Shown here in pieces: positions 14,786 through 51,073 of a stretch of DNA of 64,000 nt. Below the pieces are notes generated by a model. That model made no database searches. It saw only the letters and a list, made by a program, of their open reading frames with translations, and had not been told where the DNA came from. Source of the DNA: Isurus oxyrinchus (lineage: Eukaryota); the NCBI GenBank assembly GCA_026770705.1, contig JANJGN010000034.1, forward strand, positions 3,782,001-3,846,000, written 5' to 3'. The position numbers and the translations under genes were made by a program. Numbering within the stretch: position 1 is the first letter of the stretch; each line of letters starts with the position of its first letter.

Positions 14786-14821
14786 CTGCTCCACTGAACT
14801 TTTCAATGAGTCGTGCAATCT
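14786..14821 (-). CDS. 36-nt phase 1-1 microexon, (E)IARLIEKFSGA
   Basis: tttttcttttcctctctccag|AGATTGCACGACTCATTGAAAAGTTCAGTGGAGCAG|gtcagc; open; paralogous to 24216-24251. Confidence 0.8.
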
Positions 14822-17800
14822 CTGGAGAGAGGAAAAGAAAAACACGTTTTGTAACGCACGTTGAAATATATTCACGTTTCATCATTAAATTTAAACAAAA
14901 AGCAACATCTAAAAAATGCTGAGTCGAGGTCCAGTAAATTGAAGGTTTACTTTCGTGAATCATGGTATGGATCTGCGAAGAGCTGTCAAATAACTTTGTG
15001 CTTTCGCTCTTCCTCCGTTATTCTTTTCAGGTGCAGACTTTGGACTTGATGTTTTTCGATGCCTATCTATGCTCACGCCTTATAAATAAGCAAAACACTG
15101 AATATTGAAACGTTACATTCACTGTGAATTCCTGACAAAATTGATGGAATTTCTAGCAGAAAGATGCAAAATCGAAGCAGTCTAACCTTATTTCAAGGAA
15201 GAACAAGTATATTTGCCTTTTCTTCTCTGAGAGAAATTCAATGAGTGACACTTTGCTGCCTCATAATCATAAAGCTGATTTTTTTTTCCCAACAGATATT
15301 CATTCAGCTACATATTAAGGTTTCGCTTGAATCTATTCCGAAGACATTGTGGCAGCGCATTCCTTATCGCATTCATTTATATTTATGAGACGTCCAGCGT
15401 GCACTGATGCACGAGGCTAATAAAGAACCGACATGCATCGATTTTCATAGGCTGCGTTTGTCCTCAGTCTGCTTGCTAACCTGAAGCTAATGGCTGTAGC
15501 CTGAGGGTCAAAGTTCGGCATCAAGCATGGCTAACCAAAATTCCCACCCAGTCATACAACCTGCATGACGGTTGTTGGCAGGAAGTTGATGGTCAACATA
15601 TTCACCTGCCATATGAGGCCGGCCTCCATGGCCATCAAGCCAGTGCGACTGGAACATGTGGAATCTGGCTGCCCACTGTCCTACAATAAATCACTGTATT
15701 AATCACTCCATTCAGAGAAAGGACACGCCTGTTATCGCTTTTAATTGAATTGCTAACCAGATTGCATATGTTGTCTGTACTTCATTATCATTGAGCCAAT
15801 TACAACATTGTCTTCAGGTGCGATTTTAATGCCTGTATCAAATGTCCTCTAAACCTTCCCTTTTCGAAGTGTAACAGTCACAGTTTATCGAATCTATCCA
15901 GAAAATTGACGATTTTTCATTCATGGAACTATACTCATGAAAAGTCTCTGTGCCATCTGCCATATCATTATATTATTCCTGTTAAGTGGTGCCCAGACCT
16001 TGAACATGACTTCAGCTGAGCTCGTAATAATGTTTCATATTGGTTGACCATGACTAAAATACTTTTGCGCTCTATGTTTCTAACCATAAAGCCCACGAGT
16101 CTGTATGCTTCAATGGCCGGTAATGCAACGTGCCACAGCAACTTCAATGATAGAAGCATAGATGAAAAAAAATCAATTTTCCCCACTAGCACGTTTGGAC
16201 TTGCAAGTTTTCTTTTAAAATACATCTCATTCCTCCTAACAAATTAATCATCCGCTCTACTATAAATTGATTATCATCAGCCAGTTTCGATGCCATGTGA
16301 CCCCAATATATAAATCGACTCCTCCTTCTTTCGGTATACCAGAACACAGCTCTTCGTTCACGATAATTGTATCCATTTAAATATTCCTATTCCACCTAAT
16401 CACACTCCTTTAGCCCATTCAGGGTCTCAAATAGGCTGTTTTTGTTCAGGTTTTGCGAGCCGATTCTTCTGGTAGAGGCAAATAGAAATTATTTACTTAG
16501 TACTTACTTGTGAATATATATACATATGATATAGGGGCAGGATTCGAACATTTGAGACTTCCAATCTTCTCCTTAATTTCATATCATCGTGACTCGTCTG
16601 ATTATGGATTGAACTCGAATTCCCTTCAGCTGCCACCGCCCTTCTTCATCAATAACATTTGATTCAGTCCAGGCCAAATATCTATCTCCACCTTGCATAC
16701 ATTGGATGGTATAGGGTCAAATTCTCCTTGATATAGAAAACAAGCTTTCATACGTAGATCAAAGATGATTCCCATTTCAAAAATCCAATAACCTCCTTAA
16801 CAATGGATTAAAGCATTTAATTAATGTCAGGTCTTAGGAATTATGGCCTATACCTCCATGGTTTCAAACTCACTCGTCTCTAAAATCAACGTTTTAACTT
16901 TTCATGTTTACAGGCCGCTTTAACGTTTCCAGAATCAAGACATTGTTGTAGGCATGCAGCAGCTATTTCTGCCGCCACTTGTGAGAACTCACGTGGTTGT
17001 AGGACATCCAAAGCCGGTGACTTGTCAAGCCATTGTCCCATTGGCTTTCCAAAGACCTTTCTTCCTTCTTTAATAATGTCAGTGATTATTTGAAGTCCCT
17101 CTTTCTATTGTTATTTACCAGATAGCATTTTGTGTCAACAATCACGAAGACGTGTTCAAAATATTTTCCACGTACCTGCTAAAACCTTGCAATGCATTGT
17201 TATTCCATCAGTCTCGCCCACTGGGTGACTTGAGCTTACTTTGGAGCTATCTGGTGTGAAGCTTTTCCTATTTTACTTTTCATAGCACCTTCGTTAAACA
17301 GTGCATGATATATTTGATAATGGTTATAAAGAATTTCAATGGATTGTGGGGAAGAATGAAACTGAATGCATTTAAATGCACGCAACATTCCGAGTTAAAA
17401 TGACAAACGGATAGCATAAAAATACATAAATAATTATGATCTGAAAGCAAATACAGCGACATTGCTGCAGGGTGACACAGATTAGCCTCTGAATATTGAA
17501 GATCACATGTTAATTTATAAGTGAAGGAAGTTAGCAAAACATAGAGGCGTGGTTCTATTATTTAATTATGGTATTCTCACAATAGCGATGGTTGAACTAG
17601 GGTTTATAAACTATGATGCCTAAACGTTCAGGCAGAGGTTAGGACAAACATAAGGCAAAGCGTCGCGTGTGGGAGTGGTGGGCATATCTACACAGTTGGA
17701 GAATTATAAAGGAAGCAATAATACGAGTCTCTCGGAAAATATATCGATAGTTACATAATTTCTAAATCTACAAGGGAATTGGAAAATTCACATGGTCAAA

Positions 17801-19938
17801 GGATAACCTGGATGATGAGTTCATGGAATATTTTTGGAATAGGATCTTTGAAAAGCATGTTCTGGAACAAACAAAAAGCAGGCTATATGTTGGGCAAGAA
17901 AAACGTGTTTAATTCAAGACCTCAAAGTCAAGGACACCCCTCAGGTAGCATTGGTGATTGCCATTTACATCTTGTTTCAGGGTGAGAAGAGTGGGTCCAC
18001 GGCTCTTACTTGAAACGTCAGTAGGGAAATTTGTAAAGGCATCAAAGCGCAGCTAGCTGAAGTGAAAAGGCAAAACAGGCAATGTGGTAGGTGAGTATAA
18101 ATGTAGTTGTAACCATCTATAGGGGCATATCAGAATATGCCGAATACATACAAACCAACGAGGCAGCAAATATTCAGTTGAAATACCCACCATCCGTGGT
18201 TAGCTGAACACGAAAAGATAGTATCAAACAAAAGAAATATATATAATTGTGCAACAATGGATTGGACATATTATAATGAAACAGCGAAAAATTACAAAAG
18301 GGTCAAAAAGAAGTGGGTGAAAGAGTGCAAGAGAGAGCTAGATATAAATAAAAAGACATATTATGAGCTTCTATACATGTTATATAAAGAAAAAAAGTTA
18401 GTAAAATTAGCGTTGCATCGATAGAAAGAGAATCAGCGGCATAAATAACATTGACAGATGATGAATTGAACTGGTATTTTGCATCGGATATAACCAAACT
18501 CCCAGCAATAATTGTGAAAAAGGAAACAGAAGGGGTTCAGGCTGTCATGAAAACTCCAATAACTGGGCAAGGGGAACTGAACTTATGACTGTAGCAGGGA
18601 GATGACAAGACATATTCCAAATATCATTCCTCATTTTTACAGTAATGTGCTCCATGACCAATATTACGGCACCACCTCATTTTTACACCACTCACCTATG
18701 CGCCCTAACACCCCCACCCCCCCCAAACCCTCATGCACCTGCCTCGCCTGAAGATTATATATCTCAGAGAATTGAGGTGCGAGTCTGACCCCTCTGTATC
18801 CATGTCTCTTTGACAAAAATGATATCATCAAAGCCCTCAACCCATCCGCCTTCATGGCATGACTTTGTGATTAAAATAAATGCTATCCAGCCTTACCATG
18901 CTTCCTTGTGCCTTACTTGACTATATTCACCTTACCTTCCAGTCTGACTTGTTTTTCCTTCTGTATGTTGTCGGTGCTTGACCTCCTACTAATCTTCCAG
19001 TTCGCATCCCAGCCCTGCAAACGTACTTAACCGCCACCAACATCACTAACAAACCCACACACCCTAATATCCACAAGGATATTTTATTGGATGTTGACTT
19101 TTGGAAGTTAGATGACGGCTCAATGATCTATGCAACTATTTTACTACTTTTTGAGTGTTTTTACTCAACTCACCACAAACGTTTTGTGACAATATGTATT
19201 CAAAATATCCACACATACTGATTACTGTTTATGATTTTCTTACCGAAGGCACTTTCTAAACAATCATCATACGTAAACCATCATAGTAATGGTTAGATTT
19301 TCTGATTCTCCCATCTGCCTGTCTTCTGGAACTGTTATGTGCAATGGAATAAAAATTTTGCAAGCTTGATCACTTGTAAGAACGTAGATTTCAAAAATTA
19401 ATTCATCTCATTTTTTGTCATGAGTAATCTGTTTATTTGAGATGCCCTGCACGTTCAGATTACGTGGGTTCAGGTGCATTATTTTCTTCATATTATATGC
19501 TTCAACCTTAATCTGTAGTGCACCATTAAGAATTTGGGTGCTCACACATTGCGACTTAAAACTACGCGTGAAGGTAAGGAAATTGGCTACAAACCGAAAG
19601 TCAACACAAATCAGTCAGTTGGTTCACTGTCGCCTGAATACACAGTGTATAACTAATATTCTCCTCTAAGTGTCGCTGCAACAAATGCTTTAACTGTGAG
19701 CGCAGACTAATCAAAAGCATGGCGCAACGACGGCTCAGCTGTGCAGGGGCTCCTGAAGGAATCTGGAAAAAGATTTGCTGAGGGGTTTTAAACCCACCAC
19801 AAGTAACTTTGCAGGAAGTTGTATCGTCTGCATGAAAGCAAGGTTAAGTTTGTAATATTGATCTACCTAAATATCTACCTATCTATCCGTATTACTATCT
19901 ATGTCATCATCCAGATTAATATCTTCCTGACCGTCTAT

Positions 19939-20168
19939 NNNNNNNNNNNNNNNNNNNNNNNNNNNNNNNNNNNNNNNNNNNNNNNNNNNNNNNNNNNNNN
20001 NNNNNNNNNNNNNNNNNNNNNNNNNNNNNNNNNNNNNNNNNNNNNNNNNNNNNNNNNNNNNNNNNNNNNNNNNNNNNNNNNNNNNNNNNNNNNNNNNNNN
20101 NNNNNNNNNNNNNNNNNNNNNNNNNNNNNNNNNNNNNNNNNNNNNNNNNNNNNNNNNNNNNNNNNNNN
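19939..20168. other. Assembly gap (230 N) flanked by imperfect ATCT-like repeats
   Basis: N run with atctatc/atctacc-type repeats on both sides. Confidence 0.99.
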
Positions 20169-20219
20169 ATCTATCCTTCTACTATTCTTCCTGTCTACCT
20201 ATCTATCCGAAATACTTAC

Positions 20220-20246
20220 CACTGTCCTTGTCTTTTATCGTTTTGT
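20220..20246 (-). CDS. 27-nt phase 1-1 microexon, (D)KTIKDKDS
   Basis: ttaactttacattcttag|ACAAAACGATAAAAGACAAGGACAGTG|gtaagt; consensus donor; paralogous to 30637-30663. Confidence 0.8.
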
Positions 20247-22390
20247 CTAAGAATGTAAAGTTAATACAGATTGGTAATGCATACATAGAGTTATTGACCC
20301 GCGTTCTAATGAAGCAGAAACAAATAGTATCTAGTAGACTAAAGTGAAAAAGCTGCAGCTTTGAACACTACAATTCCAAAGGGCTGCGACATAACTCGCA
20401 ATGGACTGGTTCACTCTCATGTTACGTAGAATAAATAGATTCAAAATGGCCTGCTGATGAGAAGAATAAACATCCAAGTATCAGTTTGGGATTCATTATA
20501 TTACAACTCAAGGTGAGTTAGCTTACGATCTAGATCAAAATGTTAATGTGCAACACTGACACTTATGGACAGCTGATTAGACTGCACTTTTAGTTCTTGC
20601 ATATATATTCAAGCTGCAGATCGTACTTAAATGAAACTTAAGGTCGATAGCATAACTAAGAGGTGTTAGACAAGTGCAAGGCAAATGATTAAAAAAGGCT
20701 GAACAGGCTCTGGTTATTTTCGTTGACAGTTTGAATGCTGAGGAATGAACTATTGGAAAACAATATATAAAAATAAAATTATTTCAAGGGCCGGAAATAT
20801 GTTTCCATTTTTTGTCCCACATCAAAAACTAGGGCGCATCAACAAACAATCGTGAATGATTCCAACAGATGGGACAGCAGAAACAAATTTATCAGACAGC
20901 TGATGATATATGATGCCTCTTCATTCATGCAGTATTGGAATCTAACAGAAATAATTTTAAAATAAACCTGGAAACTGATAAAGGAAAACAAATGAAGGCT
21001 TCGTGAAGAAAATTAGAGGAAAAATTGCAAAAAGATATTCAAGGGTATTTAAAATGAAATGATCCAACTGGTGAAACAAAAGCCTAGAGGGGAAAAAATA
21101 ATGGCTCTTGACTTTGCGTTCACTAATGTGAAAGTCGAACATGACACTGTCCACGAAGTGGGCAGAGGAGTCTTTATTGCACAGTCCCAATGGAAAACTG
21201 ATCACTTCTTCCCTCTGTGAACACACTGTGTTGTTTGATTTTTCTAAGAGGCATCAGCACAATTACAAATCGGATAGTTTCAGAACAAATTTACAGCTCA
21301 GAACGGGGCATTCATGATTAGGTTTGAGTCAGGAGCTGCCACAGAACTGTATTAAACCATATCCTGCAACATTATGGTTCGCAACATCACTCAAAAGCAA
21401 TAGTCACCAGTGTACGTTGTAAATCCTAGTTCAAATAGTTGACAGGAGACCGTGTGTTGAATCACCACTAAGCATTGGTAAAACCAACTTGCCAAATTTC
21501 CGAAGATAGAAAAAAGCTCTGAGTGCTTGATAAACAGGGGAACAAGCTTACTGTTGGCAAAATGCAGCGATCTCAGAAAGAATAGAGCCCGTGAAAATGT
21601 TTTAGTCCTCTGAATCCGCAGCCTAGAATGGTGTTGGATGATGAAATTATTACCTGAACGTTGGTGTTCTGCAAACATTTCAATCCTCAGCAGTGCAAAA
21701 GCAGTGAAATTCAATGTGAATTAGAAGGCTGAAATAATTGGAAAATGTAATCAGATGGCAACTCTCGACGTCTTTCTGAAGGACTGCAGGATTTATCTTC
21801 TCTCCAGATGGTGTTAAAAAAAACAGCTGAAGGCACTGTTCAAAATCAAGACTATGGCCCTTCATAATAAAGCCACCGTGGTTTTGATAACCTATGCTCC
21901 GAACTAGCGACATACATAGTCAAGCTGGTGAATTGCTAAAACAACTCTATGCACTCCCTGCAGGCGTACAACGTTGCCCTGACATATTATTTCCACAGAG
22001 ATCAGGAAACAGTTTCCTTGAATCATTACCTCCTTAGATTCGGGGAAGGTTGCTTATGTTTGAGAGATGACACTGTCACCCAGTTATTCAACAAGTGCTG
22101 GAATCTAAACATTTAACAATTTATGTAAATAACCTGAAACAAGAGATGGAATGGATGGTTGCCTAATTTGCTGGTTTCATAAACAAGGAAAGGAAACTTT
22201 GAAGAGGATTTAAGGATGTTTCAAAATATATAGATAGGTTAAGCGAGTGGGTTAAGATGTGACAATTGGATTATAACGTGGGAGAATGTGAAATTACCTG
22301 ATTTGCAAGGCCGAATACAATATAAGAGTATTACCTATTTGGTTAGAGATTGCATGCCTCTGAAGTGCACAGTGATCTGGGTGCTTTAGT

Positions 22391-22494
22391 GAAGTTCTGT
22401 CGAAGGGTCATGAGGACTCGAAACGTCAACTCTTTTCTTCTCCGCCGATGCTGCCAGACCTGCTGAGTTTTTCCAGGTAATTCTGTTTTTGTTT
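22391..22494 (+). mobile_element. ~104-bp Penelope-terminus insertion with minimal hammerhead-like motif and 13-bp TSD
   Basis: TGGGTGCTTTAGT at 22378-22390 and 22495-22507; insert matches the 3' terminus of the GIY-YIG element at ~34720-34812. Confidence 0.88.
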
Positions 22495-24215
22495 TGGGTG
22501 CTTTAGTACATGGCTCTTAAATGACTAGGGTTCAACTACAGAAAATAAGTAGTAAAGCTATTAAAATGTTGCAATCATCTGCAAGGGGAATGGAATACAA
22601 ATGTCGTGAGGTTATGTTTAAATTGGACAGTTCACTAGAGAGAGCACATTTGGAATACCATGCACAGATTTGTTTACATTATTTAAGGTAGGTTGTAAAT
22701 GAGTTGGAAACAGTTCAGAGAAGGTTTGCCGGTCTAATTCCAGAAATGGGTGGGTTGTCTCATGAGGGCAGTTTTGACAGACTATGCATGTATCCACTGC
22801 AGTTTAAAGGAGTAACAGGCGGCCTGATTGAACCTTTATTATCTTGAGGCATCTTGACAGGCTGGTTGTGGAGAAACTGCTTCCTCTTGTGGGAAAATCT
22901 GGAACAAGCTTTCACTGTGCACAAAATTAAGGGACAACGCCCATTTAAAACAGGGATGCAGCAAATTTATATACATCAATGGGCAGTGAGCCTTTGGAAC
23001 TCTGTGCATGAACATGTGGTGGAAGCAGAGCCTGCATATCTCAAAGATGGTGCTGGGTCTATAATTCGTAAGCAAGCGTTATTGAGGGTACATGGGATGC
23101 AGATTTCAGGTTGCTCTCAAATCAGACAGGATCTTCTTAAAATGAAAGCCATATTGAGGGAGCAATTAGCGAAGAATATGGGATCTTGGACATCACAAAC
23201 AGAGAGACGGAAGATTCATTAATCTATGCTTAGGCCACCAGAAGAACACTGGTTTCAGCTGATTTCACCATACGTTAGGAAGAATTCGAGTGTCCCTCAA
23301 TAGGGCCAGATGAATTTTACCAAGCTGCTTTCAGAGATGAGGAATAAAAATTGCGATGTAAGGTTGGAGGAGCTCTTTTCTCTATCTTTGAAACAAAGGT
23401 GTTTATGGTGAGATTTGATAGCGAAATACAAAGCAATGGGGGTGTTAAATAAGGTTGACATAGACAATACCATCTTATTAGCCGGTCGTACAATGCAGAG
23501 ATGACACAATTTAAATGTATGGGCTTTCTTTGGACAGAACCGTAAAGTATAATGTGCTCTGCATCGATTTGTATTGACCTTTAACTCGGGGTTAGGAGGG
23601 TGCTAAAAGCAGAGACAATAACTAACTAATAAAGCAAATGTGATGGGCGCTAGTATATCCCATAAATGATTATATAACTCCAGTGCCAAAGGCACGATTA
23701 GCTCATGTTGAAGCATTTCGGGTCACATTAACATTTGTCTTCATGCTTGATGAAAAAAATCCCTTTCCTGGAGCTTTTAATCAAGCATCTGCGGTTCTTC
23801 CACTGCTCATAGGGATCTCCATTTTCAGATTCAGATCTGGAAACTCATTGAGTGTTTTTGATTTTCAAAGGTGACTTTTTTTTTACATTTAGTTACTCAG
23901 AAATGTTTAACAGCGAAATGTTCAACAGCATTGGACCGCAGACGATACGAAGCTCCAGAACTGATTTTCATATTTAGGAAATGAGGCATCAGATATTGGT
24001 GGAGTATCCATATCGGCTGTTAAAGGGTGAAGAGATGTATGTCAGATTTTTGCTACTCATACCCTATGTTTCCAGCTTACCTGCAATTCACAGGCAGGAA
24101 GACAATAGTCTGGCTTGATGTAAATATAAAATGTAATTCCCTTTGGTTATGACAAAGAGTATATTAATCATAAACACTTAACGTTTTAATGGCTTGGTGG
24201 CTACAATGTGCTGAC

Positions 24216-24251
24216 CTGTCTCACTGAACTTCTGATTGAGCTCTTCAAGTT
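24216..24251 (-). CDS. 36-nt phase 1-1 microexon, (E)LEELNQKFSET
   Basis: tttctgcttactccctttccag|AACTTGAAGAGCTCAATCAGAAGTTCAGTGAGACAG|gtcagc; open. Confidence 0.8.
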
Positions 24252-27200
24252 CTGGAAAGGGAGTAAGCAGAAATTAGAACGTACGTTAAATGATAACACA
24301 TGTTTTGCCATTGTAATTAAATAAGAAAAACAATACCAAAGAAAACACAAGTAAAAAAGAAAACTTTTGAGTCCTAGTCCGCTAGAATTAAGGTTTACAT
24401 GACCACCATGAGCACAGTGAATTAATCTGACAAAAGACGGCTAATTACGGGTGCGCTTCCAGGAGTTGATTGGGGTTACTCTGTTCTTCCCTTACTCATG
24501 ATGCCTGATGCATAATTTCTATTTGACGATTTGCGATGCTTATCTTCGGCACCCTTTACTAATGTGCAAAATTATTAACAATTGGAATGTCACATTCAAC
24601 ATGGTTAATGTCTAAATTGACGGAATTTCTCAAAAGAATCTGCAACACGCAACCTGGACATTAGGCTCTCCTTGCCTCTGAGCAACTTATCTCCCGACAC
24701 GCTACTGCCTTAGACCCATAAAGTTACACCATTTTGTTCTCTTCAGCCATTTGTCCAATTCCATATTAAGGCTTCGCTTGATGCATTTCCAACCACTTTC
24801 GGGCAGAAAATTCCAGATCCCTATCATTAATATTGAGAAAACCCTGAACACCCATTGAAGCATGAGACAAATGATTAAGGTATTTCCATCTATTTTCGCA
24901 ATTCCTGTTTGTCCTCCACCTGGTTGCTCACCTGAATGTAATGGCTGTAGCTTGAGGGGCAAAACTCCCTCTGAAGAATGGCTAACCAGGATTCTCCCGT
25001 TCATGCAGTCTGCATTAGGTTTGTGGCAGGATTTCAAAGTTAATAATTAACATCTTTGCCCACAATACCAGAGCGGCTTCACTTTCATGAAGCCCTGGAG
25101 TGCGACTGCAGCCTGGGGATTAGGCTATACACTGTCCCACAATAAATCCCGGCACTAATCATCTATTTTAAAGGAAGGTTTTTCCTCTTATTGGTAATGC
25201 TAAATTTGATAAACACCTTAATGTCTCTCCTCTATTTTATCATAATTAGGCCGATTGCAACACTTTCTCCCATCTAGTCTGTGCTGACGCTTCGTCATTT
25301 CAAATGTTTCAACAAATCTACACATAAACTTCCCTGTTCGAAGGCAGGCTCCCCCTGCTTAACCTCCATCCAGCTAATTGAAAATTCTCACGCATGGAAC
25401 CATTCTCGTGAATCTTTTCTCCTCCCTCTGTAAGGTCATGTTATTTTTCCTGCTATGTGGTGCCCACATCTGGAACATCACTAAAGCTGATTCTGGACCA
25501 ATGTCCTATATAGCTTTACCATGAATTCCATTGCTTTGCATTCTATCGTCCACGATACATCCCACAAGAGTTAATGCTACTTTGATGCTGACAAGACTTG
25601 CCCCAGTAACTTCAATGATATATGCAAATATGAAACAGGTCCAGTTTCCCCTCTAGCACTTTATGGCCTTGCAAGCTTTATTTAAGTTACATGTCCTTAT
25701 TCTTACTAAGAAATCTAATAATCAACACTTCACAGTATTAATTTTCTTTTCCCATTTCGACGCGATGAGTCCCTAATAATTAAATTGTTTCGTATTTCTC
25801 TCGCAATAATAGCATGCATCTCATTAGTTCTTGCTACGTATTCAAATTTCCTTTTTCCTATTCCACCTAATCATTCTTCTTTAGCCAAAGTGTCTCAGAT
25901 ATCATTTTTTTGTTTAGAACTTTGCGATCAGATTCTTCCTTGGTAGAGGCAGACAGAAAGTGTTTAAATAGTACATTCTTAAGAACATATAGACATGTGA
26001 AATAAGGGCAGGATTAGACCATTTGACCCTTGCAACCTGCTTCTCAATTTCATATGATCATGGCTGATCGGATTTAGTCTTAACTCGACTTTCCTGCGGC
26101 AATTGCCCCTTCCCTTCCACCATAAAGTTTTGACTTTATACCAGGACAAACATCCAGCTATCTCATCTTGTATACGTTAAGTGGCATAGACTGATTGCTC
26201 TTTCCTATAGAAAATATAGCTTTCAAAAGTAGAACAAATAGGATTTCCGTTTCATTGAACAACATTGATTTTTTTCGAGTCGACCATCTTTTTCTAACTG
26301 TAATGTTATAACCTCCTTAATAATGGATCGAAACAGTTTATGAATGGCAGATTTCAAGCAAAATGGCCGGCGTGTTCCTGGTTTCTACCTCCATGATCTC
26401 AATAATCAAAGTTTTACATTGGTACTTTTACAGGTTTTTGCAACTTTTCCCAAAAATCTGAGATTTTTTGAAAGCTTGCGACTACAACAAGAATAAATTC
26501 TGCTGCGACTTTGGAGACAGCCAGAGGTTCTAGTACATCTAATATGGGGTGTTGTTCAGCTGTTGCCCACAGCCTATCGATCGACGTTTTTCTGTCGCTA
26601 ATTATGGAGATTATTTGAAGTCATCACCAAATATTGAGAGTTTTGGATGATTTTTTGCGTCAACAATATTTAAGGCAATAGTTTCTCCTTAATTCTGTTA
26701 TACCCTTCTTATACAATATTACTTTCCCAGCCTCCAAAACGGAATACCGATCGCTTAATTTAGCAGCTATCTTCATTGTTATATACTCGGATGAAGCTTT
26801 TCCTGTTTTATTTTTATATAACATTTCGTTAATCAGTGCATGATGCATTTGTTAGTAGTTATAACATATAACCAAAGGATCATAACGAAGAATGTAACAT
26901 ATTGTATCCAAATGCACACAGAAGTGTAAATATAGCAGGAGAGCTGATTGCTCAAACGGAAATAATTAAGTATGATTTTACAGAAGCTGCAAACATATGG
27001 CTGCAGGCTGGCTTGGATTAGTCATGAATATTGAAAGGTAAATGACAATGAAGACTTTCAAGAAATAATGAAACATGGTGGTTTATTCCTGCAAAATAAT
27101 GATGACATTAATATAAATGAGATGGCTGAACCACGTATAAGAAAAAGTGGCATTTAAGCAGTTCGATGCAGATTAGAAATTATAAAGGCAAGACGAGACT

Positions 27201-27299
27201 TATTGAAGTGGTGCCCAGGTGTACACGATTAGAGCAGTATTAAGGAGCCTTTCCGAAAAGTAAGGCAAAAAAACAAAGAAGCTTACAATCTACACTGAT

Positions 27300-29720
27300 A
27301 CTGGGAAAAGCAGATATACAAAAAGTGGCTTGGATGCAAAGTGCATAGAATACTTTTGGGATAGTTCTTTTTTTTTCGAACAGCACGTTCTGGAGTCAAC
27401 AGGACAGTAGAGCACACTAGTTCTGGTATGGTGCAACAAGGAAGGATTAAGAAATGGCCACATATTTACGACATCCCTGGGTAGCATAGATGATTCAATT
27501 TTACATTCGGCTTCAGAGAGAGATGAATGGAACCTATACTTTTACTTTGAACTTTGAATAGGGACAAATACGAGGGCTCTAACGCAGAGCTAGTTAAAGT
27601 GAGAAAAGCAGATTAGGCCAAGGGCTAGTTCACGAGAGATGCAGTGGCAGAATTGAATCATCAGAATGTGCAAAATAGATAGAATCCAATGAGAAATAAA
27701 ACAAAAGGTCCCTGTATATGCCAACTGGGGTCAGCTAAAATGGTTCATAGAATATTAAACATAAAGAGATAGAAACATATAATTGTGCAAGTATGCATGA
27801 CACATCGGATTATTTGGCACAGTATAATGGGACGGAAAATAATTACTAAATCTTTGATAAGGAGGGGAAATAAAGTACAGGAGAAAGCTAAATAGAAATC
27901 TAAGATCATGTATTAAAAGCGTCTTTAGATATTTATGAAATTGAACTGTAAGCAAAGTGAGCATTCGGCCGATAGGAAGTTAATTTGAGGACATATTAGT
28001 GGAGATGTTAGGTGAATTGAACAGGCATTTTGCTTTGGAATTAAAGAATATCCCAGGAATACTTGTGAATCAGGAAATGGAAGGGAAGGACACACTCAGG
28101 AAAATTAAAATCACATGGGCAACGCTGCTGTGCATATTGTTTCAGCAAGAGGTTGAAAAGCTCCTGAGCCATGAAGTACTTCATCCTACAGCCATTTAAT
28201 AAGTGGCTAGTGCGATAGTTTATGCCTCGGTATTAATTTTCCAAAGAAAAATTGCTAGATTCTGGAAGGTTCTGTTAGTTTGGGGCATAACAAGTGTAAT
28301 TTTTTTCTTCAAGGAGAAATGGAGACAGGAAAGAATAAATTACTTGGCACCTCAGCTGAAATATCTCACTGGGAAAACATGAGAGTTTTTTCAAAGATGT
28401 TACAGCAGGGAATTAGATAGGTCACAGGAAGGTCGACACATGCATCATGGTTTTATCAGAGTGAAATCATGTTTAATCAAATTAGTGGACTGCTGTGAAG
28501 AACCAAAAGAGCGTGTGTATGATTGGGGAACGGACGGTTGTACTTCGCTTTGAATCCCAGAAGTCTCTGTATAATTCACCTCATGAATGATCGTTCTAGG
28601 AACTGAAATCTCGTGATGTTACAAATAACATATCGGCATGGAGCGAATGTATACATGGTAATAGGAGTCAGAGAGTATGCATAACTGATTCATTTTCTGT
28701 TTGGCTTTATGTAAGGTGTGTGCGCTACAAGGATGAGTGATGAGGCTCTAACTTTTATTTTACAATTTATACAATGGCGTGGATGAATTGACCGAAGGCA
28801 TGTTTGCTGAATTTGCTGTTGATACAGAAACAGGTTGGAATGTTCGCTGCGAGTGGGATTTCAGGAGGCTGCAAAAGGATAAGCATAGTTGAAGGTTTTG
28901 GGCAAACATATTGTAAATGGAACATAAAGAAGTACATTTGAAATTGTCCATTTTGGCACGACGAATAATCACGAAACATGTTAGCCATTTGGTGATATGA
29001 GGCAAAGTTCGGAGATGTAGAAGGACCTGCATGTGCTAGTTCATGAATTGCAAAATCGTAGTATGCATGTACCGCAAGACATTAGCAAATCTAATAAAAT
29101 ATTACTGTTAATCACAAAATGAGTTCAGTACAGGCATAGAGAGTATAAGCGACATGGATACAGACCATTTGTGACACCAATATGGAATAAGGTCTACATT
29201 TCTGGATTCCTTCTCGAAAAATGTTGTACACGCATTGGAAGAAGTTTGGAAAAATGGGGGAGCTGTTTCATGAGAATTGTTTCGATATGCTAGCCGTGTT
29301 TGTGCGCGGGTTTAGAAGAGTGAGACACAACTTGACAAAAAATCAATAGCAGCCTGAATGGGCTTGACTGTGTAGGTGTGGATATGACGTTTGCCTTGTG
29401 GGCGAATCTACAAATAGGAATCATTGTTTAAAAGTAAGTGCTCGCCGCTTTAAGAAGAGATGAGTCGATTTGTTTTTCTCCGACCGAATATCCCAGGGCT
29501 TTGAAAATCTCTTCGTCAAATGGGCTGGAAGGAATATCTGTGAATATTTGAATGCAGAGCTCGATAGACTTCTGTTAGGCAAAAGTTTGAAAGGTTATCG
29601 GGCTAGGTGGAAAGTGTAGTTGAGTTTACGATGCAAAAAGCTCTGTTCTTATTGAATGGCGAAGCAGGGTCGAGTGCCGAGTGGGCTATTCCTGCTCGTA
29701 ACTGGCATGATTGCATGTTC
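27300..29720 (+). mobile_element. Degenerate CR1-type LINE ORF2 and 3' tail
   Basis: Decayed ORF2 motifs in order (HGF..KSCL at ~28445-28475, KFA-D at ~28800-28830) ending in a CR1-like 3' tail at ~29640-29720. Confidence 0.7.
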
Positions 29721-30567
29721 GCAAGAAATGGAGTTTGCCATTTTGCCCCACGAGCATGCTGTTACTTCAATATTAAATCTGATTGTGCTGTAAAATCCAC
29801 TTTCCTGAGCCTCTCAATTTTCCTTTCAAACGTTAACCCTCCAAACTCCCGACGCCTCCAACCATCGTTGTACTTTTCTCCCTTGCATAGGAACATTTTC
29901 CTTGTTCATTCATCAACGTATTTAGTCACCCAACCTCCACTGCTCTCTGGGAGGGAGATCTCTGAAGTTTCCAAAGCATCTGAAGTAAAGAAGGAATATA
30001 TCCTCCTATCTCTGTCTTAATTGGGAGACATGGTCTTTGTTAATTGTGTTTGCTTGGTCCAGATTAGCGGGTGAAGAAAAGATCCCCTCGCCATCTTCAA
30101 TGACAAGCATCTCAGGAGTTGCAGTTATATATTAATGATTTGGATGAAGGGACAAATTTAAACATATATAAGATACATTTATTTATATACAGGCAGATTA
30201 AGTGAGTGATGAAGTTTTGGCAGATGGAGTTTAATACAGCTTTGTGTGATGTTATTCAATTTGCTTGAAGGAAACCAAAATAATGTTGCCTCTCAGTGTA
30301 GAAAACAGTGTAGAATGTAATGATCAGACACATTCAGGTGTTCTGGTGCGTCAGAATGAAGGCACTGCATGCAAGTGGTATGCTGGCAATTAGTGCAAAG
30401 AGTTTGTATTACAATGATGAATAAGTTTTATGACAGTTCTGATGGGTTTTGATGAGTCTGCATCTGGGTTACATTTTGCAGCCTTAGTCTCCATTTTTTT
30501 TTATAGAAAGGATATATTTGCATTGGTGGATACATGAAAGGATCATCCATTCATCCAACTCTTTCAC

Positions 30568-30573
<6 letters not shown>

Positions 30574-30602
<29 letters not shown>
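30574..30602. repeat. (TA)n microsatellite
   Basis: TA run ~35 bp into the intron after the 27-nt exon donor. Confidence 0.95.
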
Positions 30603-30606
<4 letters not shown>

Positions 30607-30619
30607 ACCAATCATGCAC

Positions 30620-33150
30620 CTGCGTAATATACTTACCAATTTCCTTGTCTTTTAACTTGTTGTCTTGGAATATAAAGTTGCTACACATTGGTACGCATGC
30701 ATAGATTTATTTACACTCTATCGAATGTAGCCGAACACATATACTATGTTGTTAATTAAAACGATAAAGCTGTCATTGTAAAGACCACAATTTCGAATGA
30801 CTGCAAGATGACTCGAAAAGCTTTGCAAATTGTTCGTTTTGATAACATCTCTACGAAGTGAAATGAAATATTTTGGTACAGAAAAAGGAGTTATAAAAAC
30901 ATATACTTTCTTCTTAATTTCAAGTACAGCCAGCGGCTGTTATTCATAGTGCCACGACCGCTACCCCCTCCCTGCCCCAACCACCCCCACGCAGGGCATT
31001 GGCGGTTATGAGTCTGCATTCAATTGAATTCATTTCTGCGGGCGCCTTTCGGGAGATGACTCAAAACATCTACCGAATATTTTAATAAAAAACACCCTCC
31101 TCGTTGAATTTCCCCCACACCTGACAGCTATCATATGCTCCATGTATCTGATTGGATTGCCTTATTCCTTCTGGATTAGCAAGTTGTGATTTGCTTCCCA
31201 CTCTGTACGCTATGTCATGACAGCTAGGCACATATTAAGCATGCAGAAATTGTTTTGCACAACAATCTGGGAAATGATGCGACTCCGCTGAGAATATAAG
31301 CTGAGGCAGGGTCTACCCTTTCATGACGCTGTTAAATGATAAACAGCACTATTAAAGTAACAGTTGCACGGTTCATCCTGTTGACACGTCCTTCGTGCAT
31401 TACTGGAAGAAAATAGGATAGTCACAATGCTGTCAATTTGATGCATCTGCAAAAATCCATTCCTATGCCTGACGTGTTCCCTAATTTTATGAATGTGCCG
31501 AAAGTTTAGAAGTCTTTTTTCTTTCCATGTGTAAGCCTTTTGGAACTTCCCAGGGCAGTGAGCAGGCCAAGTGAAAGGATAAATTTTGCTTAATGTGTCA
31601 GGAGCAGGAACTTGTGATTTACTGGCTTGATAGTAAATAAAGATTGAATTAATTTTATCACCTTTAAGGGTTTGCTGGTGTGCACATGTGGTTCTGTTTC
31701 ACGTAATTTTCATCTCAACGTATTCGATCTCATCCTTCACTATTTTGTTCACGTCCTACCGCCCCCACATGTCTCTCTCGTTTCTGTTAACTAAAAACAT
31801 ACAAATTGAACTGAAACCGGAGGCAAAATGTAGAAAACAAAGTAATGACAGAGAGATTTGCAAGAACGGTTAAAGAATAGCAATTTTGGTTGGCCTCCAT
31901 TACTTTTTCCAAGGAGGTCCCTCGAGATTGAGAATTACTTGTTTTGATAGCGAATCATTGGGTTCCGGGACGGCTTATTAACAATTGGTGTGTGAACGCT
32001 CAGACAAATGAATTGCTGTTTTTGATTGTGCACTCTCTCCATTGCTCCACTTCCCCGCTAAACATTTCCAACACAGTCGCTTGATGTGTCTGGTGCCTTG
32101 CCATATAATTTGTTCCAATTCTTGATGGTCATAGGATGCACCGACAACTTGGAGTCTAATATGATGGTGAGATGAGTTCAAAATCCAGAGTCAGTCAGCA
32201 AGGCTTGTCTGCAACAGGCTGATTGACCGAGCTGACGAAGACAGGAAACATGTATCAGCGAAATTGGGCATGGTCTATCGGCTGATGCAACCACGTAGAA
32301 GGAAAAGTGGAGAATCTAGTTGACTTCGCTTCCTTTAATATGCAAGTCAAAAATGGCCCTATCCTTTATCATGCAGACATGGCACATTATCGCTCAGCAC
32401 TTTTGGAAAGCAGATCACGACATCCTTCTGCAAACACACTCCATGTATTTTTTTTGCACTCTGAAGCATCAACACGATCTTAAATCAAATAGATTCAGAA
32501 CGGCCCTCGCAGCCAGTGCGGGTCATCCAGGAATAGTTGCGAATTATGAGCTGCCGCAGAAATAAATTAAACAAAATCTGTAATATTATGGTTCCGAATA
32601 TGATTCGTTTATGGTTATGTCTAAAGCAGAGAATCAAATCTGGCTGAATGGGTTGACCAGTAGAGCCTGCGATGAAACATCTCCAGGCATTGCTAGAAGC
32701 AAGTCCCCAAACTGGTGCATATAGATTAAAGCACCAAGTGAATAATTAACAGGGAAGCAGCTTTGCTTGGCAGAACGTAAAGATCTCACAAAGCACACGG
32801 TGAGTTAAAACGCTGTGGTCCTCGGAAATTCCAGCCTAGAAAAGTGCTGAATGATGAAACGATTTCCTTGAAGTGGATGTTTTGTAATCACTTTAACACT
32901 CAATAATGGAATTGCACAATGCGACTGTGTGAAGAATATAGCTGAATCAATTGGAAATTTCATCAGCCAGCTGGCCTGTTTGGGAGCACCATCAATTTGA
33001 CCTCCACCCGAGGTGCCTAAGGAGTACAATTCCCTTCTCAGCGTGATAAAAACAGCTGAATGCATTGAATAAAACCAATAAGGCAACTGCAACATTGAAA
33101 ACATATGCTGCTAACTAGCTGTGTACCTAGGAAAGTTGCTGCACTACTGC
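30620..33150. repeat. Degenerate tandem segmental duplication, copy C (partial)
   Basis: Matches 20210-20410, 9175-11460 and 21110-21960 (e.g. gaagtgaaatga..cagaaaaggagt at ~9200 and ~30855). Confidence 0.85.
30637..30663 (-). CDS. 27-nt phase 1-1 microexon, (N)NKLKDKEI
   Basis: gcaactttatattccaag|ACAACAAGTTAAAAGACAAGGAAATTG|gtaagt; weaker AAG acceptor, consensus donor. Confidence 0.75.
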
Positions 33151-33724
33151 AACAACAGTAAGAATACTCTGTAAACGCTCACAATATCACTGATAAGTTG
33201 AGTGCACATAAAGCAGCAAAAAAAAAATCACCCCGTTCAACTATTTCTGCCGAAACAATCTCTGAATCATAGCAATTTGATAGATGGCCTCATTGCTGAA
33301 GTTATCAGGTAACACTTCCTGAGTAATGATATTTTGGGATCGAGCAGGTCCATTCCTGTGAGATGTCATTTGAGACTTTGCACAAATATAAACGCAGTAG
33401 CTTAATTCAAGTGTTGCAATTATTCTAATTGCATTTGTAATGAAGGCAGCGTAAAAGAGACCATAAAAAAGGATGCAACTTGAGTTCGGTCTTGGCTGAT
33501 ATTCCATTGGCTAGGAGTCTGAACAAGTGAAATGTAAGATGTACTCGCTTAATGGTCTACGCAGCATCATAAGGCCAATCCTGAAGTTTTCACAATGGAC
33601 ATTACCACATACAGCTGCAAAGGTGCTGATACCGGCTATAGGCACATAGAAAAATATCTGGTGAACATTCAGGCTTGAAACGGTAAGGTGATTGTGACAT
33701 TCAAGCCAGATATGTACCAGTTGC

Positions 33725-34812
33725 TTTTCCTCACTTCTCAACCCACCAGCCTCCGCATTCAATGGATAATCCTCGGCCATTCTGCGATCTACAGCATGAT
33801 GACACCACCAAACACATTTCCCTTGCCCACACCCACACCTCCCACCCCCGTGCGGCATTTTGTAGGGATCAATACCTCCGAGACACCCTGGTCTACTCCT
33901 CGAAAACCCCAACTCCTCAATCCCAAACTACAGCACCTCCCCATGCCCAGTCAAAAGATGTGCACCTGCCCCTTCGCCTCCTCTGTCCTCACCGTCCAAG
34001 GGCCCAAACACTCCTTTCAAGTGAAGGAGCATTTTACTTGCATTTACCCAACTTATTCTACTGCATTCGTTGCTGCCAATGTGGTCTCCTCTACTTTGGG
34101 AGAGACCAAATGTAAACTGGGCAACCGCTTTGCAGAACACCTGCGGTCTGTCCGCAACAAGGACCAAAACCTCCCAGTTACTTGCCATTTTAACCCTCCA
34201 CTCTGCTCTCTTGCCCACAAGTCTGTCCTTGGCTTGCTGCATTGTTCCAGTGAAGCCCAACGCAAACTGGAGGAACAGCACTTCATCTTCTGACTAGGCA
34301 CTTTACAGCATTCTGGACTGATTATTGAAATCAACAACTTCAGATCTTGAACTCCGTCCTCCATCCCCACTCCCTTTTCGTTTCTTCCCCCTTCCTTTTG
34401 TTTTTTTTTCAATTATTTATATAGATTTTTTCCCCTCCTATTTCCATTATTTTTAAATGTTGTATGCCCTGCTTGTCTTTCCACCCCACTCCCACTAGAG
34501 CTGTACCTTGAGTGCCCTGGCCTCCTACTTATTTAGCACATTTGTTTAGATAATATTACAACCTTCAGCACCTCGTTGTTACTTTGACTGTGACATACTT
34601 TGATTATCTGCTCCTATCACTGCTTGCTTGTCCCTATAACCACACCACCCACTCCCCTCACTGAACCCTGCACACACACCTCAAACCAATTTATATTTCA
34701 CCCCTCCCCTAATATTCACTCAGTTCTGTTGAAGGGACTCAAAACGTCAACTCTTTTTTTCTCCGCCGATGCTGCCAGACCTGCTGTGTTTTTCCAGGTA
34801 ATTATGTTTTTG
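33725..34812 (+). mobile_element. 5'-truncated Penelope-like retroelement (GIY-YIG endonuclease C-terminus and 3' terminus)
   Basis: Frames join as NLFYCIRCCQCGLLYF/GETKCKLGNRFAEHLRSV..LPVTCHFN..RKLEEQHFIF*LGTLQ, a Penelope GIY-YIG signature with frameshift and stop; ends in the hammerhead-like terminus. Confidence 0.92.
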
Positions 34813-35459
34813 TATCGAGATACATCATCGCTCACGATGAAACTGAATGGCAATGCCGGCTTAAAGGTCCAACTGATCCAATGTTTCTCCTTCTTCTCTT
34901 TTTCAATGCCCAGCGCTGTCTTAAGAAGGGACTTTGAGCAATCTGGGCCTGCATGCACTGAAGTTCAGAATATTGGGAGGTGACATTACTGAAGCAATGA
35001 GATTTTGAGATGGCTTGACAATTTGGATGTTCTCAGGACGTTTCGTTTCCACTTGTGGGGTAATCTAGAGCTGGGGAACAGTTTCAAAGTAAACGCCCTG
35101 CTAATAAATTTGGAGTAGAGGAAACATTGCACCCTCAGATCGCTGTTAATTTCTCGATTTCAATGAAGCAGAAAAGAGTGAAGGTTGGTCATTGAAGATA
35201 TCCAAGGCTGACTTAGAAAACTTATTGATTGCCAACAGAAATAACAGTTATGAGGGTCAGGAAGGAAACTGAAATTAAGGATAAAATCATGGCAGTCAGG
35301 GATGGATTAAGTGATGAAGCAGGTTCAAAGCTCAAATAGTTTAGTTCCAATTTCCAATTTCATTTTTGTATTTTATTCATATCTGTTCAATGGAACATTG
35401 TAAAAGTGAACAGAAAGATTAACACTCCGCTGACCAGGCCTATTCCTGGTAATTCTTAC

Positions 35460-35495
35460 TGCTATCTTGCAACGTCTTCTTTAGGCGTTCAATAT
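35460..35495 (-). CDS. 36-nt phase 1-1 microexon, (D)IERLKKTLQDS
   Basis: ttttatttatattttcag|ATATTGAACGCCTAAAGAAGACGTTGCAAGATAGCA|gtaaga; open, strong splice sites. Confidence 0.78.
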
Positions 35496-38880: not shown

Positions 38881-41458
38881 GCACTGAAAAGCATCCAACT
38901 AACACAATAATCAACTTTGAATGTACGCATTGTTGGAAGTGGCAACCATAAGTAATTTAACCGTAATTGTGTTTTCTTTAGTTGTAACGTGCACGTGTCC
39001 CTAATCTACATTATTCTATTGGACATATGGTTTAGATAATGAGGGCATATTATGGTAACCATCCATCGACAAGTCACACTTTTTGCACGTGTTCAAACTG
39101 GCTACTGGATTGTCTTTTCCCTGATTCGATGTTTTCTTAAATTCCAACGTTCACCATTGGTAAAAGATTCTGACTCACAGTTTTAACATAGAATGTGAAG
39201 GGTATACATGGATATTTTTTTAAAATAATGTTCACATTCCCTCTAAAGCGAAACGCATTGTTTTTTTATTTTTCCTGTCTGTTTATAGCGAGCACGTTTT
39301 CCTGGTTATTTAATGCCCATCGCCTTCATAAAGTTAAACAAATAAAACGTTTTAAAGCAAAAATTAAGAAAGTACTCAACGGGAGGAGGGCTAATTGCAA
39401 TGAGATTCAAGTGAATCTTAACCCGATGAATTGAAAACAAAGTAAAAACGCTATAGGGGATGTCCAGGGAAATTTAATGCATCAGACCATGGCCGCCATA
39501 TCAATACAATGGAACCGTTGGCTTTTCCTGTGTTTTATATTTCTATTGATGCAGCGAAGTTAGATAAAGTACCAAAGCAAACATGGGCTGCGACCGAAGA
39601 GGAGGAAATGCAGAACAGAATAGAACCAATTAAGTTCATCCTCGGCTACTAAGAGGTGCATGGGTGGTGAAAATATTAGTTCTGGTTAAAATCATGCACC
39701 ACCAATTAGATATGCAAACGCGCTAGAGAACTGTGGGATTGCAAATATTACAGCCCTGTTTATAAAAGGAAGGAGCGTAAATTTGACAGCAAATTGGCCA
39801 CAGGTCAAATATCCGCCGTGCTCTAATGTTAAAGGAGACCAAATCAGTTTCCACTTGGATAAATGGCGCTTAATAAATAATGAACTCAGGCATTTCATAA
39901 AGAAATTCAGCTTTGCCGAAATTGGCATTTGATGAAGCATCAGAGAACGCTGCACAAAACTACGTGAATGACGTTGTTTATTTCGACTTTCAAAAGTCCT
40001 ATGATAACATAATAATCCCGGTTGACCAAACAATGCCGAAAAAATAGCTTTCGCCTTAACAAGCCTTATAATCGACAGGTAGCGGGAATTTTAGAGGCAA
40101 TTCGCTGCACACGGTTGTCTTATCACAAAAAAAGCCGCTAAATTAGATCTGCGAATGTATGTCTGACCGGAAATTTGACGGCTCCTGAAGCATTCGTATT
40201 GAAGTTTTTTTCTCCCGGAGACGTCGTTTATAACGCAAATAAGTATGTTTTTGTCTAATAATTGCATTGATATGCAGTCAATTAGACGGGATGAAAAAAA
40301 CATGTTTTAAACTTTTCTACATCTAAAGAAAAGATCTTTGGGCACAATTGGACATCACGTTATTTTTCAGCTTTGCTTATTGAACATGTACTCAAATGCA
40401 TTCTATTTAACGCCATAATGGAATGCAAAACATTCCAACATTCTGGCGGATTTAAAGGTGTGCTAACTGCTATGGGTAGACATTTCACATTCCCATATAT
40501 ATTTCCACCCTGAGGCTTTCGGAGAGATCAAATGATTGAAGCAGCGCATGACCTGCAAAAAGTGTGCAGCAAACTCTGTAGCTTAATGCTTAAATGCTTT
40601 TTTGCAGATTCGGAAGATGCTGCCTGATTTATTTCATATGGACGACTGAGCTCACTATCACCCTTAACACAATGAACAGGCTATTATTTCTGTTGTAATA
40701 TATTCCGCACTCTCACCAGAAATGAGGTGATTCTTCTATAGATTGTTTAAATGACCTGAACTGCAATCCATCAAAATCGTTTGCCTTAAGTTCCCCAGAT
40801 TTGGTTCCTCTGTTAATTATCTACCGAAATAGATATTAGCTAAATATCTTTTTTTTTCTCTTCTTTAACATTGTTAATTCCACAGGCAAGGACAAACAGA
40901 GATATGCAACATTGATTTTAATGTAGCAACTATTTTATATTCGAGAAAGCAACACACCTCGTTCTTTTTCATTGTACAATGGTCCTGTGAGGTTAAAAAA
41001 TTGTAACATAGATGTAATAAATGCCTCGAAGTGGAAGAAGTGATCTATTTGAAAAATAAAACATTTCACTGATTTTATTAACATTCACCTTTCCAAAACC
41101 GTACAAATGTATTAATACTACTACTAGTAACAATAATAACAATAGTTGCTATTCATTATAGTCATATTGTTTGCTAACAAAGATAACTGTACATTTATGT
41201 CTGGCGCTCTCCCATTAGAATGGTATATTCACATTGCCTGGGTTCCTTTCGGCCTATCCAGCACTTAGTTCAACAAAGCCAGAATTGAACTTCGAGAAAA
41301 TGGATTGCCATCATGACATCAGCGCAGCTGTGCTGTCCAAAACGAACGTCTGATTCATTGTGGTAGAGGGCTGTTTTATTTTCAACATATCAGCCGGCCG
41401 AATTGAGGACTTCTTCCGATAAATCTTGCGTGTGCCGAAGGCTTGCTGCCTTTCTCAC

Positions 41459-50375: not shown

Positions 50376-50950
50376 CTGTTCAAGACCAATCACAGTTCGA
50401 TTTCTAAGTTCTCCAAAGCTTTCTTCTGTTCCTTGCTTGTGGCATGACACAGTTCTGTGTATCGAATGCTGCTTCCTCTATTTGACCTTCAAGCGGTCCT
50501 GCAGTGTAGCTTTATCTTGTTGATAATACATATTTTATCTCTGTTTGTTTGTACCCGTGGCTTGCTCACCACCACTCCTCAATAAACCATGATTAGGCTC
50601 CGCTTTCTGATAACGGCAGAATGACAACACAGGGTAGACTCATGTTTACTCGTACTGATAGTGACATGCTCAATAACATCTCTAACTAGTAGAATTGTAT
50701 TTACATTATCTCTTAGATATTCCCGATCTGTCATAAATGTCCTTCAGGGCTCGAATAGCTCCGTCAGAAGATCCATTCTTGGTGATGGATCATGGATTAC
50801 CCCATCTGGAACACTTTCCGTGTCCATGTTATTTCTATGCCAATTCGAAGTGCTTTTAAGATGGGGGAGCACTGTTTCAATACTGGGTTGAGCGAATTTG
50901 CGAATATTCGTTAGGAAGTATATATTTGATATTGTGAAAACAGATGCCAT
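50376..50950 (-). pseudogene. Putative first coding exon of the coiled-coil gene, disabled
   Basis: aaaATGG at 50950; the same frame reads ..PRMDLLTELFEP*RTFMTDREYLRD..ELCHATSKEQKKALENLEIEL*LVLN(R)|gtaaac with four TGA stops. 5' boundary uncertain. Confidence 0.45.
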
Positions 50951-51073
50951 TTTACCGGGGTAAATGCCTATGCCTGCAACGGCAAAGTTCTTCAATGCAA
51001 ATGCAAACCATTTTCCCAAAGAATCAGTGTTTGCACCGCTGGTGTGACAGAAAATAAGCAGGGATGTTGAAGT

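Follow-up and report, generated by a model that had tools for sequence, protein, structure and literature searches.

Can exons of 27 and 36 nucleotides (nt), too short to register in a search for open reading frames (ORFs), belong to a real gene, and if so to what kind of gene? The question arises in a 64,000-bp stretch of the 4.98-Gb genome of Isurus oxyrinchus, referred to here as the window (contig JANJGN010000034.1, hereafter C34, positions 3,782,001-3,846,000; a window coordinate is the C34 coordinate minus 3,782,000), in which a preliminary description reported five minus-strand microexons that splice into a heptad coiled coil. We examined these exons within 764 kb of contiguous sequence comprising the window and flanks on both sides. 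The five exons stand, but about 125 predicted microexons form the array to which they belong, and they make up only about 4% of it. This array, termed gene A, spans the whole window (1-64000, minus strand) and runs past both of its ends. It is very probable that the window exons belong to a gene ending in a B30.2 domain. We also consider likely a broader claim, namely that the entire array is spliced into one gene and encodes a coiled-coil rod, at least 1,200 residues long and cytosolic, that ends in a B30.2 domain.

Microexons in the window

Read along the minus strand, the five reported exons are 36 nt (35460-35495, IERLKKTLQDS), 27 nt (30637-30663, NKLKDKEI), 36 nt (24216-24251, LEELNQKFSET), 27 nt (20220-20246, KTIKDKDS) and 36 nt (14786-14821, IARLIEKFSGA) long. 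All are present at these positions with AG and GT ends, are in phase 1 on both sides and contain no stop codon, and the sequence suggests that they would be spliced into one coding chain. In the joined peptide every seventh residue is hydrophobic, with I, L, L, L, F, I, I and F at the eight 'a' positions, a result reached in any of the seven registers by 4 of 100,000 residue shuffles. The 'd' positions read L, S, K, L, T, K, L, A, confirming leucine at three of the eight. A 27-nt and a 36-nt exon together span three heptads, and the earlier reading, in which these segments are hidden microexons coding for a heptad coiled coil, is supported. Among the last four exons, one 27+36 pair duplicates the other: 30637-30663 is a duplicate of 20220-20246 including the upstream intron and 14786-14821 is a duplicate of 24216-24251 (exon identity 0.81 and 0.67; upstream introns 0.69 and 0.58, compared with about 0.46 for random DNA).

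To rank microexon candidates, defined as AG..GT or AG..GC segments, we trained a DNA profile on the array exons that lie outside the window. The three 36-nt exons take ranks 1 to 3 of 407 candidate sites (profile scores 21.7, 19.1 and 16.8, with the next at -5.9), and the two 27-nt exons take ranks 2 and 4 of 403. Ranks 1 and 3 among the 27-nt candidates fall to two minus-strand exons that had been overlooked, a profile match at 61233-61259 (DKLRQCEK) and one at 40958-40984 (PLYNEKER), which ends in G and supplies the Asp preceding exon 35460-35495. One plus-strand 27-nt control scored 12.9 in the same ranking. Three weaker minus-strand candidates, at 619-636, 4307-4342 and 62482-62508, lie near the plus-strand noise and were left uncounted. 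The window also contains retroelement-like and short-repeat fragments with many copies in the flanks (33679-34293, 46716-47060, 50744-51190 and 54348-55459), and some fragments in the flanks that resemble long interspersed elements match RVT_1.

An array of about 125 predicted microexons

The exon array reaches far to either side of the window, and an untrained splice-site scan of 464 kb on both strands reveals it directly. The minus strand holds 58 stop-free AG..GT segments of 27 nt and 32 of 36 nt, versus 5 and 7 on the plus strand. When the stop filter is removed, the avoidance of stops is specific to one frame: among 75 candidates of 27 nt, stops occur in 6 in the phase-1 frame versus 43 and 32 in the other two, and among 43 candidates of 36 nt, in 4 versus 36 and 13. 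This bias is absent on the plus strand and weak for segments of 24, 30, 33 and 39 nt (17 versus 25 and 29 of 50). The encoded peptides also have fixed hydrophobic positions, with hydrophobic fractions of 1.00, 0.94 and 0.88 at positions 1, 4 and 8 of the 36-nt exons (n = 33) and 0.81 at position 3 of the 27-nt exons (n = 64). Cysteine occupies the 'd' position in 11 of the 33 36-nt exons.

At three thresholds, the profile finds 105, 123 or 138 exons on the minus strand and 3, 8 or 14 on the plus strand, a control that is favourable in that training used minus-strand exons. Our working chain, built at a profile threshold of 14 with three exons added by hand, consists of 125 predicted phase-1 exons (70 of 27 nt, 40 of 36 nt and 15 others) that extend from C34:3,974,961 down to 3,478,419 and total 3,711 nt, with a median intron of 2.4 kb. 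Its product of 1,237 codons is rich in K (19%), E (16%) and L (15%), contains 8 Pro and 29 Cys, and is free of stops at the junction codons. The 27- and 36-nt exons alternate strictly in runs of up to 9 exons. Every exon is phase 1-1 with a length that is a multiple of 3; because each is thus symmetric, duplication or skipping alters the length of the product and leaves the frame intact. Skipping of a 27+36 pair retains the heptad register, while skipping of a single exon shifts it.

Several observations weigh against an unbroken rod made from all of these exons. Within the window, five of the eight 'd' positions are polar or small. While the coiled coil is uninterrupted across the five exons, as had been proposed, this does not extend to the whole gene, in which register is kept at 70 of 109 inter-exon steps and 28 steps shift by 2; the rod is therefore interrupted, incompletely called or alternatively spliced. 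Local periodicity likewise departs from 3.5 in several blocks of the chain. In a tandem block at the 3' end, the ratio of nonsynonymous to synonymous differences per site (pN/pS) is 1.04 for 13 copies of the 27-nt exon and 0.73 for 12 copies of the 36-nt exon. The preliminary description had also expected the copies to be better conserved than the flanking intron, which holds for the 36-nt copies of this block (identity 0.76 versus 0.62 in the flanks) and barely for the 27-nt copies (0.65 versus 0.62). Judging by the plus-strand count at an equal threshold, obtained with the profile trained on minus-strand exons, at least about 8 of the 125 exons may be false, and genuine ones have probably been missed. 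Finally, splicing across 520 kb and the continuity of a single gene are predictions from genomic sequence. A 401-base stretch around one exon, a weak query that is mostly intron, had no match listed among RNA sequencing runs.

Near-neutral change in the tandem block could mean that constraint is limited to the frame, the splice sites and the core residues, or that the surface is diversifying. It could also mean that tandem duplication left the segments behind as by-products now in decay, with their coding function lost, as the pN/pS near 1 and slight exon-over-intron conservation of the 27-nt copies would suggest. Two of the splice sites among the five window exons are weak as well, namely the donor of 35460 (A/gtaaga), which has a generic score of 0.9, and, with a score of 13.4, the acceptor of 30663 (AAG). 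Decay is nonetheless extremely improbable, as it is at odds with the frame-specific avoidance of stops, with hydrophobic positions that are nearly invariant in diverged copies, and with the intact, constrained B30.2 exon described below, which has a co-linear catshark orthologue.

The predicted ends of gene A

The preliminary description saw no B30.2 exon and left the family unnamed, a view that must now be revised. A terminal exon at approximately C34:3,474,116-3,474,636 (-307.4 to -307.9 kb in window coordinates), 322 kb downstream of exon 14786-14821, encodes a B30.2/SPRY domain. It scores 66.5 bits against the SPRY model, for which the cut-off is 26.3 (E 3e-18), and Pfam PRY gave no score. 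A 27-nt phase-1 exon at -303.6 kb directly precedes it, and no second B30.2 exon was found between the terminal exon and the 5' end of gene A. A profile of the family described below matches BTN3A1 (E 9e-30) at the top among solved structures. The B30.2 exons are constrained, with uncorrected pN/pS values of 0.46-0.56 over 10 pairs.

The 5' limit of the array lies near +210 kb, where the gene appears to begin head-to-head with another. Within C34:3,994,011-3,995,747 is a 422-bp inverted duplication whose arms are 88% identical and separated by an 883-bp spacer, and each arm contains an ATG nine codons ahead of a phase-1 donor. The arms likely hold the first coding exons of gene A and of a divergent neighbor, gene C, and the duplication is likely a bidirectional promoter common to the two. 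The candidate first exon of gene A lies in the minus-strand arm (C34:3,994,011-3,994,432) and would be followed by a predicted 39-nt exon on the same strand (C34:3,991,816-3,991,854), giving MFAFSTNTY and FVQAFEKDVKLQ as the predicted products of the first two exons. An alternative first exon, MRMAISIMQL at +215.8 kb, was rejected as it lies outside the inverted first-exon pair. The idea that the inverted repeat is a transposon end is unsupported, as the sole close genome copy of each arm is its partner; the other 29 genome matches are short or about 70% identical, and are to its intronic part. With these ends, the length of gene A would come to about 520 kb and that of its product to about 1,430 residues.

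The predicted 5' exons of gene A show no canonical signal or membrane segment. No match to the Pfam immunoglobulin (Ig), RING or B-box models was found in 100 ORFs of at least 75 residues from the interval between genes A and C, nor in 88 ORFs of at least 65 residues located 5' of gene B, a neighboring gene of the same type. A pattern scan of 664 kb returned no convincing C-type lectin/CD23-like, Ig, RING or B-box motif, and no full Ig motif.

The spacing of the exons also allows the array to be divided into two or more genes, with the window exons in an upstream, BG-like gene that encodes a rod and lacks B30.2. Gaps of 14-25 kb separate some predicted exons, including one of 20 kb within the window, and by eye the exons 5' of the window are closer to the start of gene B than to the 3' tandem block. 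We regard this division as very unlikely, however, as only one candidate first exon and one terminal exon were found, and in genes C and D, too, hundreds of kb separate the start from the next B30.2 exon of that strand.

Sister genes on C34 and C21

The B30.2 exon of gene A has six paralogues. Four close ones, 44-45% identical, are found on C34 at 2.71, 4.82, 6.40 and 7.50 Mb (genes B to E), and two more are on contig C21 at 89.7 and 91.3 Mb. The C21 pair consists of two microexon rod-B30.2 genes (89.66-89.72 Mb and 91.31-91.35 Mb) within a large B30.2 cluster near class I genes of the major histocompatibility complex (MHC); C21 holds 24 of the 25 MHC class I matches, mostly at 94-100 Mb. Microexons lie upstream of five of the six paralogues, as arrays for genes B and C and both C21 genes and as the first exons of an array for gene D. 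For gene E two small terminal exons were seen, with no coil exons in the first 60 kb scanned. No first exon was identified for genes B, D or E. Genes D and E have near-identical B30.2 exons (synonymous differences per site 0.09), and a segmental duplication of about 22 kb, with 76-83% identity, lies upstream of both (C34:4,827,827-4,850,373 and 6,433,690-6,455,835).

Gene C begins its array on the plus strand at +223 kb (C34:4,005,537-4,146,000) and changes from 39-, 36- and 27-nt exons to pure 21-nt heptad exons (19 in 141 kb of plus strand, none on the minus strand), leading toward a B30.2 exon that lies some 800 kb from where the gene begins. A candidate start for this gene, MIHPLLFIIYSV, was rejected as a polypyrimidine tract because a conserved exon lies upstream of it.

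These sister genes bear on the location of the product, which is most likely cytosolic. Two minus-strand microexons of gene B (C34:3,450,057-3,450,083 and 3,440,839-3,440,871) encode, in order, ILISLIDI and VLFLVLVMRR just 5' of its first coil exon, and are the only strongly hydrophobic small exons on either strand of the 764 kb. They are possibly a split signal, or a membrane anchor, with an Asp in it. Together with three RefSeq models of related proteins that have a hydrophobic start, they count against the proposed location and make it uncertain. The product of the same gene could instead be secreted or membrane-anchored through a short hydrophobic N-terminus, as an extracellular and possibly disulfide-linked rod or as an Ig-less butyrophilin-like tail; if secreted, it might enter mucus, the egg case, or seminal or other gland secretions. 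The three models (skate XP_055510696.1, chimaera XP_042192744.1 and Hemiscyllium XP_060706632.1) start with Met followed by 11-14 apolar residues, genes C and D have in common a conserved early exon that starts VILALEVA or VMLAIEVA, and the cysteines at 'd' positions would permit disulfide linkage. We nevertheless judge a secreted or anchored product unlikely. The predicted first two exons of gene A lack a canonical segment of this kind, as do the multi-isoform models of Narcine and catshark, while the hydrophobic starts in the database may be read-through of polypyrimidine tracts, and many of the solved B30.2 relatives are titled intracellular domains.

A chondrichthyan family

A profile search of 1.84 billion proteins, supplemented by name look-ups, identified family members in Scyliorhinus, Cetorhinus, Hemiscyllium, Leucoraja, Narcine and Callorhinchus, ranging from 175 to 1,697 residues; three other protein searches returned few members (3, 11 and 2 matches in all). 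Homologous chondrichthyan proteins, whose existence the preliminary description had left as a test of its reading, are thus at hand, and the reading is not refuted on that side. Their automatic names are TRIM39-, TRIM58-, TRIM69-, A33-, BTN3A1- or nuclear-pore-anchor-like, and no RING or Ig domain was found in the family sequences read. A 'zinc-binding protein A33-like' entry, A0A401NX33, which may or may not belong to the family, appears in a shark skin proteome (PMC10707392).

In a tree of 58 rows with a midpoint root only, the family and the five C34 B30.2 exons form one side of a branch with 100/100 support and a length of 0.98, opposite 44 other rows, made up of ten named B30.2 domains plus those that scored best among the others, with redundant isoforms omitted. 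The clade covers chimaera, skate, ray and shark proteins and is set apart from the sampled TRIMs and butyrophilin; under this rooting, the family may have arisen inside or outside the TRIMs. The partner of gene A is catshark XP_038668997.1, at a support of 100/100 and with 72% identity between the B30.2 domains; four of the last exons of gene A are co-linear with this protein (three in a splice-aware match and one by tblastn). We discarded one further match, of 39 nt and to catshark residues 163-174, because it was out of order. The catshark model has the look of an ab initio prediction and is taken here as evidence of conservation, not of expression.

An AlphaFold model of the skate member (pLDDT, the predicted local distance difference test score, 75.9) shows long helices (residues 17-57 and 67-104) followed by a B30.2 sandwich, which Foldseek matches to the B30.2 domain of TRIM7 with E 5e-15; the fold matches comprise TRIM7, TRIM20 and TRIM72. 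A predicted chimaera model of 1,697 residues is in the database. ESM Atlas chordate clusters of SPRY-ended proteins of 1,277-1,802 residues, with taxa mostly unrecorded, are feature-close to the chimaera member (0.92, 0.90 and 0.79). Long-rod B30.2 proteins are therefore already in databases under automatic names, and may extend beyond chondrichthyans.

RefSeq isoforms normally rest on RNA-seq junctions, and in the Narcine, catshark and chimaera members such isoforms are distinguished by the presence or absence of in-frame blocks, 6 or 9 residues long. Seven 27- and 36-nt exons of one C21 gene also match Narcine XP_069775384.1 in order, which together with these isoforms provides indirect transcript support from relatives. 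The same isoforms, which omit single blocks, suggest that the array could act as a cassette library, in which transcripts take subsets of exons to make many shorter rods and a 1,400-residue form is rare or absent. This would suit exons that are all symmetric, and the 28 register-shifting steps would become fewer if some 27-nt exons were alternatives; an Atlas cluster of long SPRY-ended proteins is even named 'isoform X51'. The strict 27/36 runs, however, read best as a constitutive chain, and the long chimaera model stands on the same side, so a library of this kind seems improbable to us.

Discussion

A long rod with one terminal B30.2 domain suggests how the product of gene A might work. The apolar positions of the 27+36 unit (1, 4 and 8 in the 36-nt exon and 3 in the 27-nt exon) would provide three 'a' and one 'd' core residues per 21. 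The rods would self-associate and so present two B30.2 heads together, each of which could bind a target. As no RING was found, the protein would have no ubiquitin ligase activity, and the rod may instead act as a non-catalytic tether or spacer. At a coiled-coil rise of 0.15 nm per residue, it could link a target over up to about 185 nm to the cytoskeleton, a membrane or partner rods, by analogy with the tail of the BG 'zipper protein'. Its length would be set by tandem duplication of the three-heptad 27+36 unit together with in-frame skipping.

The gene family is a variation on the heptad-plus-B30.2 theme of butyrophilins, BG and TRIM proteins, and the earlier choice of BG and butyrophilin tails as an analogy was right. 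In butyrophilins, a 27-nt exon adjoins the B30.2 exon, and gene A resembles this arrangement in its small heptad exons and in the 27-nt exon adjoining its own B30.2 exon. Heptads followed by B30.2, the match to BTN3A1 and the two members on the MHC class I contig add to the likeness. Butyrophilins have few heptads, however, whereas about 170 heptad-lengths are present here, where 27- and 36-nt exons dominate; they have Ig (IgV and IgC) ectodomain exons, of which none was found in the 5' intervals scanned here; and in the tree a branch of length 0.98 with 100/100 support separates the family B30.2 from those butyrophilin-named rows that are not family members. Butyrophilins further have a signal peptide and a transmembrane exon; gene A shows no canonical segment of either type, and gene B has its two hydrophobic microexons. 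Published work describes butyrophilins with heptad repeats followed by a B30.2 domain (PMC4046983), and reports butyrophilins in cartilaginous fishes and a variable number of heptads in squamates (PMC12841164).

Chicken BG is described as a tandem multigene family with a coiled-coil tail of 13-36 exons of 21 or 24 nt, a soluble tail form of which, the 'zipper protein', acts on actin-myosin in gut epithelium (PMC4046983). Both families are tandem and build a coiled coil from tiny exons, including the 21-nt exons of gene C. In contrast, BG has IgV (variable-type Ig) and transmembrane exons and its tail leads directly to a 3' untranslated region exon, while gene A has about 125 exons over 520 kb, a B30.2 domain and no IgV found.

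Guinea pig enterophilins reside in the cytosol and carry a long leucine-zipper stretch followed by a B30.2 domain at the C terminus, without Ig or RING. In this long heptad region plus B30.2 they resemble the predicted product of gene A. The named members of the present clade are chondrichthyan only, and the searches brought up no sequence named enterophilin. Enterophilin-1 is reported to interact with SNX1 (PMC13749957). TRIM proteins (TRIM39, TRIM58, TRIM69 and A33-like among the RefSeq names) share a coiled coil followed by PRY-SPRY and the fold match to TRIM7, TRIM20 and TRIM72. They differ from the family in that no RING or B-box was found in the scanned 5' intervals or the relatives read, that the B30.2 clade is separate, and that the coil is encoded by microexons. 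A full-text literature search, whose coverage excludes subscription journals, found no paper describing a microexon rod-B30.2 family.

A bolder proposal, which we put forward tentatively as doubtful but possible, makes these genes a family derived from the MHC and specific to chondrichthyans. Each would be a giant of 0.5-0.8 Mb with 100 or more microexons of 21-36 nt, and the products would be splicing-diversified B30.2 rulers that serve in immune or reproductive recognition. Rods of variable length and register would then arise by combining exons in frame and by accordion-like duplication, and the family would be common to sharks, rays and chimaeras and concealed from genome annotation.

A multi-megabase cluster of at least five such genes (2.7-7.5 Mb of one contig, with two more near the MHC) is invisible to ORF-based annotation, and the catshark orthologue is represented by a 358-residue 'TRIM39-like' model that keeps only the last few exons. 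The genes are an extreme version of building a coiled coil from tiny exons, by way of a two-exon, three-heptad unit, and offer a natural system for the splicing of 100 or more microexons over 500 kb and for tuning of rod length by skipping. They also bear on how the butyrophilin, BG and TRIM B30.2 genes originated among the earliest-branching jawed vertebrates.

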